Part shown: piece after piece, positions 16,242-19,402 of the stretch
Position numbering within the stretch: position 1 is the stretch's first letter
How the letters are laid out: every line of letters begins with the position of its first letter
Virus record (IMG/VR): IMGVR_UViG_2690316269_000013
Location: 1-19,402 of that record
Direction: 5' to 3' (one strand)
DNA length: 19,402 nucleotides
DNA from: a virus
Taxonomy: Duplodnaviria > Heunggongvirae > Uroviricota > Caudoviricetes
Translations under genes and position numbers: made by a program
Notes under the pieces: generated by a model
Databases searched by the model: none
What the model was told of the DNA's origin: nothing
What the model saw: the letters and a program-made list of their open reading frames with translations, nothing else

Positions 16242-16997
16242 ATGCATCGTATAGACACGAAAACCGCGCAGAAGGATAAGTTCGGCGCGGGTAAAAACGG
16301 TTTTACCCGTGGTAACCCCCAGACTGGCACGCCTGCCACCGATCTGGATGATGACTACTTTGACATGTTGCAGGAGGAGCTTTGCAGCGTTGTAGAGGCA
16401 TCCGGTGCCAGTCTCGAGAAGGCGCGGCACGACCAGCTGCTTACCGCACTTCGTGCGCTGCTGTTAAGCCGCAAGAATCCGTTTGGCGATATCAAATCGG
16501 ATGGCACTGTGCAAACGGCTCTCGAAAACCTTGGTTTGGGAGAAGGCTCAGCGTTACCCGTTGGTGTACCTGTTCCGTGGCCTTCAGCCACACCGCCAAC
16601 AGGCTGGATTAAATGCAACGGTGCGCCTTTTTCTGCTGAAGAATACCCGGAGCTGGCAAAAGTTTATCCAGCGTTAAAATTGCCTGATTTGCGCGGTGAA
16701 TTTATCCGTGGCTGGGATGATGGGCGCGGGGTTGATAGTGGGCGCGTTGTTTTAACTGGTCAGAGCCAATCAGTACAGCAGCATACTCATGATCTAGCGA
16801 TGGCATACAGTTCAGATACCGCTTACAGGGACAGGCTGGGCGATACCCCTGACTCTGACATGATTCCGATTAAATATATGATTAATGCAACCACTTTTAA
16901 TGGCTCTGGTTGGGTTTACTTAAAGGCGAATGGTTCAACAGGTGCTGAAACTCGCCCGCGCAACCTCGCATTCAACTACATTGTAAGGGCAGTATAA
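16242..16997 (+). CDS. Tail fibre protein: constant N-terminal part fused to the currently expressed variable C-terminal part
   Basis: GGAG ribosome-binding site. 251 aa with C-terminal motifs typical of enterobacterial fibre tips (…[58 protein letters not shown]…). An invertase crossover site lies inside the gene at 16520-16546. Confidence 0.75.
16520..16546 (+). repeat. Left recombination (crossover) site for the DNA invertase, inside the tail fibre gene
   Basis: TCTCGAAAACC-TT-GGTTTGGGAGAAGG is an imperfect palindrome around a central TT and resembles hix/gix-type sites. The 15-nt core TTGGTTTGGGAGAAG recurs in inverted orientation at 18361-18375. Confidence 0.6.
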
Positions 16998-17602
16998 TGA
17001 CCGCAAAAGAAATTTCATTAGATGAAAACGGTTTCGCCACGGAAGACGGATATATCACCGTTTATAATTATGATGGCGTGACGCGTGAATATATCGGTTT
17101 AGCTGTTGAATATCTTCCCGTTGGCGTTGGTGTTCCAGGCAATTCGTGCGTGGATGCGCCAATCAGCAAAAAGGACGGCTTTGCTGTTTGCCGGACGGCT
17201 GATTTGACCGGTTGGGAATACGTTGCAGACCATCGCGGCGAAACCGTTTACAGCACGGAAACTGGAAAGCATGTGACAGTTTCACGGTTGGGAGAATACC
17301 CGGAAGGCACCACCACCACAGCACCATCTACGCCATATGACAAATGGGATGGTGAGAAATGGGCTACAGATAGCGATAAACAGCACTCGGCGAACGTGGC
17401 CGAAGCCGAGCAACAGAAAACAAATCTTCTGAACGCCGCAAATTCAAAAATCAGCCTGTGGCAAACGGAACTGCAGTTAGGCATTATCAGTGGCGATGAC
17501 AAAGCCAGCCTGATTGCCTGGATTGGCTACATTAAGGCGGTGCAGGCAACAGATACCAGCACCGCGCCGAATGTCATCTGGCCTGAACTGCCGGAGGCGT
17601 AG
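16997..17602 (+). CDS. Tail fibre assembly protein (chaperone for the + orientation fibre tip)
   Basis: 201 aa, TAATG-coupled to the fibre gene. Conserved Tfa-type C-terminus (…WIGYIKAVQATDTSTAPNVIWPELPEA). Confidence 0.75.
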   Translation: MTAKEISLDENGFATEDGYITVYNYDGVTREYIGLAVEYLPVGVGVPGNSCVDAPISKKDGFAVCRTADLTGWEYVADHRGETVYSTETGKHVTVSRLGEYPEGTTTTAPSTPYDKWDGEKWATDSDKQHSANVAEAEQQKTNLLNAANSKISLWQTELQLGIISGDDKASLIAWIGYIKAVQATDTSTAPNVIWPELPEA

Positions 17603-18014
17603 GCCATTCAATATCTGGCGCACCGGAAGTATCGACCAGTTCCAGTGCGTCCAGATAATCCAGCCACAAATTATATTGCGCCAGTTCCTCACCTTTCAGG
17701 CGACCAATCGCTGCTTTACCAGGCCATTGCTTACTGTATATGTATTCGTTGACCTGATTAATCAATTGCTGCTTTTCCAGTTCGGTTGCGGCAATTTGTT
17801 CCTCATGAGTTGGCGGTGGAATATCAATCCATGCAGGCATTCCGTCGATGACGCCTCTGTATTTTCCTTCTGGTGCTTCCTTCATAAATTCGGCGGCAAC
17901 AGTGTCGTCAATTTCGATTCCATCACCGGGCCATTCGCCGGATTCCTGATAAGCGATTTTAAGCTCCACAGGGAAAAACGCATTTTTATCGGCACTGAAA
18001 ATATATTTCTGCAT
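17574..18014 (-). CDS. Alternative tail fibre assembly protein (chaperone for the inverted-orientation fibre tip)
   Basis: 146 aa on the minus strand with a Tfa-type C-terminus (…LWLDYLDALELVDTSGAPDIEWPTPPAVQAR). Its 3' end overlaps the + strand chaperone gene by about 29 nt. Confidence 0.75.
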   Translation of the reverse strand: MQKYIFSADKNAFFPVELKIAYQESGEWPGDGIEIDDTVAAEFMKEAPEGKYRGVIDGMPAWIDIPPPTHEEQIAATELEKQQLINQVNEYIYSKQWPGKAAIGRLKGEELAQYNLWLDYLDALELVDTSGAPDIEWPTPPAVQAR

Positions 18015-18016
18015 TT

Positions 18017-18373
18017 CTACCGTCCTATCGAAATATAACTGAATCTGTATTGCTGTGAGATATCACTGGTTGCCACACGCCACGCTGAATTACTGATATG
18101 TTCAAAATTTACAGACAAAACCTGCGGGGCAGGATTCGACGGGTCTGACTGAACGGCATCAGACATAACACTGACTGAAACCATCGGCTGATTAGGGAAT
18201 GGTATAGGGAAGTGTCCACTGATAAAGCGGGTCGTGTTTCCTGAAAAAGTGCCAAACTGAACAATATATCCACCTGGTAGCCTGAACCATCCCGAACCAG
18301 AAGCGAATGCTCCCATATCCGGTATCTGATTATCTCCTGTGCCCACATCCCTTTTCGCCGCTTCTCCCAAACC
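18017..18373 (-). CDS. Alternative tail fibre variable C-terminal segment, without its own start; expressed only after inversion
   Basis: Minus-strand frame is open from the right crossover site down to a stop at 18017-18019, 2 nt from the alternative chaperone start. Read on the minus strand, the junction encodes GLGE, the same residues as at the + strand crossover (…ENLGLGEG…), so inversion would make an in-frame fusion. The apparent start is an artefact of the ORF caller. Confidence 0.6.
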   Translation of the reverse strand, partial: GLGEAAKRDVGTGDNQIPDMGAFASGSGWFRLPGGYIVQFGTFSGNTTRFISGHFPIPFPNQPMVSVSVMSDAVQSDPSNPAPQVLSVNFEHISNSAWRVATSDISQQYRFSYISIGR

Positions 18374-18387
18374 AACCTTTCAAATAT
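18361..18387 (-). repeat. Right recombination (crossover) site for the DNA invertase
   Basis: Minus-strand reading ATATTTGAAAGG-TT-GGTTTGGGAGAAG. The inner half and centre match the left site exactly; the outer half is degenerate. Confidence 0.55.
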
Positions 18388-18414
18388 TTTTCTGAATCAG
18401 GTGATATTTCGCCT

Positions 18415-18441
18415 CTTCTCCTGTTTTTACAACAGGAGAAG
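18415..18441 (+). promoter_or_regulatory. Perfect 11-bp inverted repeat that would sequester the invertase ribosome-binding site
   Basis: CTTCTCCTGTT (18415-18425), loop TTTAC, AACAGGAGAAG (18431-18441). The right arm contains the AGGAGA Shine-Dalgarno 6 nt upstream of the invertase ATG (18447). Confidence 0.45.
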
Positions 18442-18446
18442 CACTC

Positions 18447-19010
18447 ATGATTTACGGGTATGTTCGTGTATCAACAAATCATCAGGATACAGAGTTGCAA
18501 CGTCTTGCACTTGAGTCAGCTGGCTGTGAGCGAATTTATGAAGAATATGCCAGTGGCAGAACAGCTAATCGCCCTGTGTTAAAGGAATTAATTACGGTGA
18601 TGAAAAGTGGAGATGAGTTGATTGTCTGGAAGTTAGATCGGATAGGGAGAAATGTGCTGCATGCGCTATTGATGTTTCAAAATCTGCACGAAAAAGGTGT
18701 TAATTTTCGGAGTATTACAGATGGCGTAGACCTGAAAACAGCAAGTGGTCGCTATAATTTTCGTAATATTCTTTCTGCTGCGCAGTATGAATCTGATTTG
18801 AATAGCGAGCGAACTTTAGCTGGTTTGGCTATTGCCAGATCCAAAGGCCGGATTGGTGGGCGTAGACCGAAGTTTAGCGACGAGCAGTGGCAACAGATGG
18901 GAGCGCTCATAGCGGCAGGGAAATCACGGCGTTATGTTGCACGTATCTATAACGTTGGGCTATCAACCCTATATAAACGATTTCCTGTTACTGGCATTCA
19001 AACGAAATAA
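18447..19010 (+). CDS. pin: Serine recombinase, DNA invertase (Pin/Gin/Hin/Cin family)
   Basis: 187 aa. N-terminus MIYGYVRVSTNHQDTELQ carries the catalytic-serine motif of resolvase/invertase enzymes. Core VWKLDRIGRN and C-terminal helix-turn-helix (…YNVGLSTLYKRF…) are as in Pin/Hin/Gin. Low G+C compared with the structural genes. Confidence 0.9.
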   Translation: MIYGYVRVSTNHQDTELQRLALESAGCERIYEEYASGRTANRPVLKELITVMKSGDELIVWKLDRIGRNVLHALLMFQNLHEKGVNFRSITDGVDLKTASGRYNFRNILSAAQYESDLNSERTLAGLAIARSKGRIGGRRPKFSDEQWQQMGALIAAGKSRRYVARIYNVGLSTLYKRFPVTGIQTK

Positions 19011-19153: not shown

Positions 19154-19402
19154 TTAGTGAACAAACCACTCGTCAGCAGATTCCCAGGTATCTTTCAGAG
19201 TCTCCTGAACAAAAGTTTTTGCAGAATCCTTATCTGCGGTGCGTGTAACAGAAAGGCCATCATTGCTGGTGGCTTTTACGATCACCTCTACATCGTCATA
19301 ACGTTTACTGATGCGTCGGGTTAATTCTTCCTTTAACGCATCCACAGCACCGGTTGGCATTTTAGTCATTTTTTCTTTGGCTATGCAGATTTCAATACGC
19401 AT
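19154..19402 (-). CDS. dinI: DinI-like protein (DNA damage-inducible protein I family)
   Basis: 82 aa on the minus strand: [82 protein letters not shown]. Size, MRIE start and acidic …[10 protein letters not shown]-terminal tail match my memory of DinI. The start codon is the last three bases of the window, so the promoter is not visible. Confidence 0.75.

Follow-up and report, generated by a model that had tools for sequence, protein, structure and literature searches.

A conserved hairpin over the ribosome-binding site of a prophage tail-fibre invertase gene and its proposed role as a translational throttle

In the insertion sequences IS10 and IS50, the element's own transcript starts between an anti-Shine-Dalgarno (anti-SD) sequence and the Shine-Dalgarno (SD) sequence. 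The 'fold-back inhibition' of these elements, reportedly described by Davis, Simons and Kleckner in 1985 and by Krebs and Reznikoff in 1986, is said to shield the transposase gene from outside transcription. In IS200, a stem-loop in the 5′UTR of tnpA sequesters the SD, and toeprinting together with stem mutations established a block to 30S binding (Ellis, Trussler and Haniford 2015, PMC4513863).

Mapped transcript starts are available for two DNA invertase genes related to the one studied here. In Salmonella Typhimurium SL1344, dRNA-seq placed the primary start of hin at 2937396, 22 nt before the ATG, on an A immediately 3′ of the anti-SD arm (PMC3293720 supplement 2, row P1557; PMC3963941 supplement 7, row P1083). 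This start was recorded in two dRNA-seq data sets and under two growth conditions, with low read counts (PMC3293720; PMC3963941). Since it lies 3′ of the anti-SD, hin's own mRNA lacks the 5′ arm and escapes pairing; the predicted cost of opening the SD is 0.9 kcal/mol for this mRNA versus 5.5 kcal/mol for longer leaders. The same tables list a minus-strand fljB start inside the short hix-to-hin spacer (PMC3293720; PMC3963941), which makes this a region with two divergent promoters. For pinE of the K-12 e14 prophage (U00096.2), the only recorded starts are 1208372 and 1208568, which lie 536 and 340 nt upstream and have 4 reads each (Kim et al. 2012, PMC3415461 supplement 2). Both sit inside the invertible P segment, antisense to stfE and reading towards pinE, showing that transcripts do enter from the invertible segment. 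We found no paper discussing anti-SD/SD pairing in hin. Our search of the literature on invertase leader hairpins and on pinE and H10407 transcript starts, in which key older papers were not covered, returned no function for the element described below and no SD sequestration for DNA invertases.

The DNA analysed here is a stretch of 19,402 nucleotides, hereafter the window (IMG/VR record IMGVR_UViG_2690316269_000013). It represents a prophage of E. coli whose tail genes are Mu-like, and is 99.7% identical here to phage SKA5; the SKA5-like prophage of the window is present in many E. coli chromosomes. A preliminary description of this DNA, made from the letters alone, had called the gene downstream of the hairpin an invertase. 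This call was right, as judged from the Resolvase and HTH_7 matches of the product and from the adjoining invertible tail-fibre segment with its inverted 26-bp sites (Table 1). The locus thereby displays the features of the Hin/Gin/Cin/Pin systems, namely a small serine recombinase with Resolvase and HTH_7 domains and two inverted 26-bp sites flanking a segment. The invertase is 56% identical to e14 PinE and 45% identical to Salmonella Hin. Between the crossover sites lie genes for an alternative tail-fibre C-terminus and tail-fibre assembly, the alternative pair being on the minus strand. A terminator scan found no convincing plus-strand terminator between 17602 and 18447, so that late tail-fibre transcription should enter the invertase gene carrying the full hairpin. 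One feature of fold-back control, co-directional upstream transcription entering the gene, is thus present at this locus by virtue of the tail-fibre and assembly genes and the lack of a plus-strand terminator behind them.

Two further reading frames were noted nearby. A DinI-family gene (window 19154-19402, minus strand, Pfam 1e-19) converges on the invertase gene; in phi80, the equivalent dinL, with predicted LexA sites, is close to pinL. In addition, an ORF of 47 codons (18307-18450) starts in the invertible segment and spans the crossover site and the hairpin, and its TGA overlaps the invertase ATG (ATGA).

Table 1. Coordinates of features at the invertase locus, numbered from the first letter of the window.
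Feature	Position	Strand	Basis or remark
Tail-fibre gene (Collar domain) and tail-fibre assembly gene	16242..17602	+	Co-directional with invertase; likely source of read-through
Left 26-bp crossover site, CTCTCGAAAACC TT GGTTTGGGAGAA	16519..16544		Inside tail-fibre gene; inverted-repeat finder (I2)
Right 26-bp crossover site, TTCTCCCAAACC AA CCTTTCAAATAT	18362..18387		Inverted-repeat finder (I2)
Candidate -35, TTCAAA	18379..18384	+	Inside outer half of right crossover site; position-weight-matrix scan
Mini-palindrome, GGTGA-TATT-TCGCC	18400..18413	+	Clade-conserved; directly 5′ of hairpin; contains candidate -10
Candidate sigma70 -10, GATATT	18403..18408	+	Position-weight-matrix scan; predicted start ~18413-18417, at hairpin base
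5′ arm (anti-SD), CTTCTCCTGTT	18415..18425	+	Inverted-repeat finder (I22) and RNA fold; mean pairwise identity 0.955 (36 clade haplotypes)
Loop, TTTAC	18426..18430	+	TTCAT, TTCAC or TTTAT in relatives; position 4 (A18429) invariant
3′ arm, AACAGGAGAAG	18431..18441	+	Inverted-repeat finder (I22) and RNA fold; mean pairwise identity 0.965
SD, AGGAGA	18434..18439	+	Wholly within 3′ arm; 7 nt 5′ of ATG
Serine DNA invertase, Pin/Hin family, 187 aa	18447..19010	+	Pfam Resolvase 3e-36, HTH_7 7e-12

The perfect 11-bp hairpin with AGGAGA in its 3′ arm, the central observation of the preliminary description, was confirmed by the sequence, by the repeat finder and by folding. The repeat finder (I22) returned two arms of 11 nt, 100% complementary and 5 nt apart. 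The span originally given, 18415-18446, has the correct start; the hairpin itself ends at 18441, and the remainder is the 5-nt spacer CACTC that separates the end of the 3′ arm from the invertase ATG at 18447. The proposed check by RNA folding also bore the hairpin out: the segment 18400-18470 folds at -24.6 kcal/mol (z = -4.6) with the SD locked, and none of 200 dinucleotide shuffles folded as well. By itself the hairpin folds at -14.9 kcal/mol. The element therefore has what defines an SD-sequestering hairpin, a stable local stem (11 bp, -14.9 kcal/mol) with the SD inside one arm.

Such a structure is rare in this DNA. Across the 19.4-kb window, this is the one perfect stem that reaches 11 bp with a loop of 3-8 nt, against 0.03 expected from mononucleotide shuffles, and the 25-nt palindrome pattern occurs once in the window even when 3 mismatches are allowed, against an expectation of 0.00. 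A search of Rfam 15 gave no match at gathering score; the sole overlap, to mir-3179, scored 14.6 bits against a cut-off of 90 (E = 8.9) and is attributable to chance.

In transcripts carrying the hairpin, RNA folding gave an unpaired probability of the SD of ~0.00. The predicted cost of opening the SD was 14.6-14.8 kcal/mol for every RNA 5′ end from 17603 to 18415, and fell to 11.6 kcal/mol for a 5′ end at 18417, to 7.2 kcal/mol at 18419 and to 0.5 kcal/mol for a hypothetical 5′ end in the loop, at 18426. Among the 21 gene starts in the window, the ribosome-binding site of the invertase was the costliest to open, at 17.7 kcal/mol, followed by sites at 15.8 and 14.6 kcal/mol; it heads this list yet is no wild outlier. 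The earlier claim that the hairpin in mRNA occludes ribosome binding thus holds as a predicted lock on the SD if both arms are transcribed. The condition named at the outset as refuting it, a transcript start downstream of the left arm, is what dRNA-seq found in the homologous hin.

We then looked at conservation within the PinL clade, to which the window invertase belongs. The clade sample comprised 80 IMG/VR loci found by protein, plus phi80, HK225, mEp237 and a Citrobacter phage, and all of them carry the element. Mean pairwise identity over 36 distinct haplotypes was 0.955-0.965 in the hairpin arms, 0.82 in the loop and 0.71 in the spacer back to the crossover site; over the first 180 coding nt it was 0.88 at first and second codon positions and 0.61 at third positions. 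Judged by these identities, the hairpin arms are under strong purifying selection and are held tighter than amino-acid-changing positions. Pair counting on 17 distinct leaders found 98% of cells paired and 8 of the 12 pairs invariant. One pair alone, the outer pair, changes on both sides (U-A in 14 leaders, C-G in 3). Most clade variants gain a twelfth pair at the stem base, a G.U that is formable in RNA only. On these alignments, the within-clade signal is one of conservation rather than of covariation, and a palindrome maintained at the DNA level would look much alike.

The phi80 leader is identical to that of the window, and the phi80 record (JX871397) annotates the identical element as a repeat_region, 'IR3', before pinL, without a stated function. 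The exact leader is also carried by E. coli ETEC H10407 (NC_017633.1, ~4721546-4721636). In phi80 (2367-2635 of our locus L081), pinL is intact and accompanied by one crossover site and the hairpin, while upstream lies just a fragment of a tail-collar pseudogene, no invertible segment being annotated; phi80 pinL appears from this arrangement to be an orphan invertase.

The mini-palindrome directly 5′ of the hairpin (18400-18413) is also conserved in the clade. Its 5 pairs are 97.6% paired; at the third pair, 11 variants have C-G, 5 have U.G and 1 has U-A. From its sequence, the mini-palindrome might act as a stem in the RNA, as part of a promoter or as a site for binding. In one IMG/VR contig (3300011959_000037, our locus L025), in which the clade-1 invertase is truncated to 35 codons, a G-to-A change leaves the hairpin mismatched within its 5′ arm, and a further G-to-A turns a U.G pair of the mini-palindrome into U-A.

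Related leaders, in which a T-rich loop separates a pyrimidine-rich anti-SD from a purine-rich SD, precede e14 PinE (K-12), the Shigella-type and P2-like prophage invertases, and further genes. The stems in the PinE-type, Shigella-type and P2-like leaders are 6-9 bp long, lie in differing registers and include several U.G pairs, which are mismatches on the other strand. These wobbles favour a constraint acting on plus-strand RNA, as qualitative support. The Salmonella hin leader reads UUCU(U)CCUU...AAGGAGAA, and a natural C-to-U variant of it is still paired. Opening the SD was predicted to cost 14.7 kcal/mol in the window versus 5.5-9.5 kcal/mol for the weaker hairpins of Hin and PinE type.

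A joint alignment across clades (MAFFT and RNAalifold) yielded no usable consensus structure and spurious U.G pairs, owing to the different registers of the stems. SD occlusion in 25 representative leaders did not differ significantly from that in shuffled leaders (Wilcoxon p = 0.32), the standouts among the 25 being just the window clade, the Shigella-type leader and one other; we therefore claim no family-wide structure from that test. The 11-bp hairpin is absent from the nearest outgroup invertases, which are 68-72% identical and come from Morganella, Kluyvera and a viral contig (L090-L092, L273). A TGATAACCTGG motif, perhaps a promoter element of older date, is common to these outgroups and some clade-1 leaders.

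Whether the hairpin is present in a given invertase mRNA depends on where that mRNA starts. PinE-type leaders contain a conserved ATGnnn, a variable spacer of 17 nt and a TGnCATnAT directly 5′ of the anti-SD. By sequence the two motifs look like -35 and extended -10 elements, and they predict a start just 3′ of the anti-SD. In ~50 PinE-type loci and the K-12 pinE leader (L170 4620-4685), TGGCAT(C/G)AT is conserved 32-27 nt before the start codon. A sigma54 reading of TGGCAT in these leaders was rejected, as GG-N10-GC fits only about half of the variants and an extended -10 fits better. The GGCAU of PinE-type leaders is also able to pair with the start-codon region AUGCU.

The PinL clade differs at this point. 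Where Hin and PinE have their -10, this clade has TCGCCTC or TCGCCGT, and the segment 18409-18428 contains not a single A; the sequence and a promoter scan offer no -10-like hexamer with A at position 2. Consequently, no sigma70 -10 can place a start at ~18420-18439. A start of its own between anti-SD and SD, the other feature of fold-back control, is thus mapped in hin and, from the sequence, not expected in the clade. A position-weight-matrix scan gave a single candidate at a consistent place, namely a TTCAAA or TTTATA within the outer half of the crossover site, a spacing of 17-18 nt and a GATATT-type -10; it is the top-scoring promoter in 13 of 18 distinct clade leaders and weak (5-10 bits). 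A simple consensus scan found no plus-strand promoter at the invertase leader. On the candidate promoter, the invertase's own transcript should start at ~18413-18417, which would place the hairpin in every invertase transcript. We also noted a promoter-like site on the minus strand at 18447-18474 (TTGATA, 16 nt, AATCAT; 9/12 matches), directed leftward across the hairpin into the invertible segment; such sites are no more numerous in this region than chance predicts.

Given the lock on the SD, the highest opening cost among the gene starts of the window and the purifying selection on the arms, the most economical reading is that translation of the invertase is throttled, as had been suggested at the outset. 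We consider it probable, though some way short of secure, that the hairpin serves as a constitutive cis-acting translational throttle and as an insulator against read-through from the tail-fibre operon; the transcript start, the size of the effect and the rationale we infer from sequence and folding models. The inverted repeat 18415-18441 would be transcribed in the invertase leader and form an 11-bp RNA hairpin with the SD in its 3′ arm. On any mRNA with a 5′ end at or upstream of ~18417, the ribosome-binding site would be locked, and 30S subunits would bind only upon rare opening of the stem. Transcripts of two kinds would be affected: read-through from the tail-fibre operon and from within the invertible segment and, if the best promoter prediction is correct, the invertase gene's own transcript. 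The predicted outcome is a very low level of invertase, independent of transcription crossing the recombination site, which would suit a rare and orientation-neutral switch.

Several points count against this throttle. A 5′-terminal hairpin of -14.9 kcal/mol with no standby site might nearly abolish translation, leaving the synthesis of the enzyme unexplained. A start 3′ of the anti-SD, as in hin, would limit the effect to read-through RNA. The promoter call in the clade is weak (5-10 bits), with a negative result in the simple consensus scan. There is one covariation event in the clade, and a DNA palindrome would give the same pattern. Lastly, SD occlusion across the family did not differ significantly from that in shuffled leaders.

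The second of these points corresponds to an alternative in which the hairpin insulates against read-through only, as in Hin and in IS10/IS50: a start within the 5′ arm or just beyond its 3′ end would leave the gene's own transcript freely translated, and only transcripts from upstream would be silenced. The mapped hin start argues for it, lying in two dRNA-seq sets on the A right after the anti-SD and lowering the opening cost from 5.5 to 0.9 kcal/mol, as do the extended -10-like motif directly 5′ of the anti-SD in PinE-type leaders and the invariant loop A18429, which sits where hin starts. For the clade, however, we regard this alternative as unlikely: its -10-equivalent positions are TCGCCTC or TCGCCGT within an A-free 18409-18428, and the window hairpin is perfect and far stronger (14.7 versus 5.5-9.5 kcal/mol), which suggests another regime.

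The preliminary description had also allowed for a protein-binding operator. In this case the DNA palindrome would be an operator or an accessory site that does not recombine; the invertase itself or a different dimeric regulator would bind there and block transcription into the gene. The outer six bases of each arm, TTCTCC, are indeed the outer six of the crossover half-site TTCTCCCAAACC, and the arms are near-invariant instead of covarying. Resolvases, as at Tn3 and gamma-delta res, autoregulate by binding accessory sites whose spacings differ. The resemblance does not extend further: the inner half-arm TGTTTT is unlike the A-tract of the crossover half-sites, so that just the outer 6 of 12 positions match, and the geometry is 12-1-12 where the crossover sites have 12-2-12. 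Arms matching a half-site at crossover spacing, as expected of a recombinase-binding site, are thus not found here, and TCTCC is simply the complement of the SD. A repeated operator was rejected, there being no second copy in the window or in 18.7 kb of phage SKA5, immunity region included; so was a LexA box, inspection of the sequence showing CTG-N9-CAG where the spacing should be N10. Furthermore, the PinE and Hin relatives share the kind of crossover site, yet their repeats are imperfect, contain U.G and pair only as plus-strand RNA. With its geometry, the missing A-tract, the single copy and the wobbles in relatives all telling against it, the operator has become improbable.

The suggestion that translation is conditionally unlocked found no support. 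Here some signal, be it a small RNA, a protein, RNase cleavage, temperature or a leader peptide being translated, would open the hairpin, and the very strength of the stem does raise the question of how any invertase gets made. The ORF 18307-18450, whose TGA overlaps the invertase ATG, would provide for coupling to a leader peptide, but we rejected this candidate, since among 74 distinct relatives the frame in most cases either runs into a stop after 5-21 codons or lacks a start codon. There is likewise no conserved alternative pairing, the upstream CAGG/CTGG segment being variable, and no Rfam family match, and a perfect 11-bp stem is far too stable for a thermometer at 37 °C. We give such a switch little credence. 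Very unlikely, finally, is an RNA-stability element, either a 5′-terminal stem guarding the invertase mRNA or a 3′ barrier for the tail-fibre operon mRNA with an incidental SD overlap, for although the predicted transcript start lies at the stem base and the hairpin at the end of the late operon, the SD overlap is exact and conserved, relatives retain the anti-SD pairing while the remaining stem changes, and no U-tract follows the stem on either strand. An intrinsic terminator was rejected as a candidate in its own right: the stem is followed by CACTCATG on the plus strand and by AGGCGAAA on the minus strand, with no U-tract, and the terminator scan did not report it.

The proposed throttle bears on prophage biology through the level of invertase, which sets how often the tail-fibre tip is swapped and hence host range; the level of related invertases sets the flipping of flagellar or defence-related segments. 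If correct, a lock on the ribosome-binding site would explain why the enzyme is scarce although its gene closes a late operon that is heavily transcribed, and how its supply can be independent of segment orientation. Invertases cloned with their native leader would be expected to yield very little protein, and arm mutations would offer a simple handle for tuning the switching rate. SD sequestration is well known as a form of control and the phi80 record already lists the element as a repeat, so the gain lies in annotation and in the understanding of the invertase family and not in a new mechanism.

The more interesting lead, still unproven, is that leaders of Hin, PinE and PinL would have an anti-SD in common, with the transcript start on differing sides of it. 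We tentatively suggest, as a possibility that we would not yet favour, that an anti-SD between crossover site and start codon is an ancestral feature in the design of Hin/Pin-type invertase genes abutting an invertible segment, the position of the start setting the regime. Hin and probably e14 PinE would start just 3′ of the anti-SD, silencing only transcripts that cross the site. In the PinL clade, the promoter would have moved 5′ and the stem become perfect, such that all transcripts are throttled and supply is uncoupled from segment orientation and late transcription; the anti-SD would thus contribute to the rate of switching.

Set beside the described systems, the window element resembles the tnpA leader of IS200 in its general design: both are cis-acting leader stems in front of a gene for a DNA-rearranging enzyme, both pair a near-consensus SD, and both go with a low rate of rearrangement. 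In IS200 the stem is joined by an antisense RNA, Hfq and an upstream terminator, whereas the window has just a short perfect 11-bp hairpin, predicted from the sequence, and we identified no antisense partner for it. With IS10 and IS50 it shares an anti-SD 5′ of the gene that silences, or here would silence, incoming transcripts, with a strong late operon, transcribed in the same direction, ending at the window gene; the two insertion sequences have their own start between anti-SD and SD, whereas the clade sequence offers no -10 for such a start. The 'IR3' of phi80 is the window element itself, identical in sequence and annotated merely as a repeat. Salmonella hin belongs to a homologous family and has the same core, UUCU(U)CCU with AGGAGAA, likewise lying between crossover site and ATG. 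Its stem has a bulge and is weak, requiring 5.5 kcal/mol to open compared with 14.7 kcal/mol for the perfect stem of the window, and in the window, unlike in hin, the gene's own transcript would also carry this much stronger stem.
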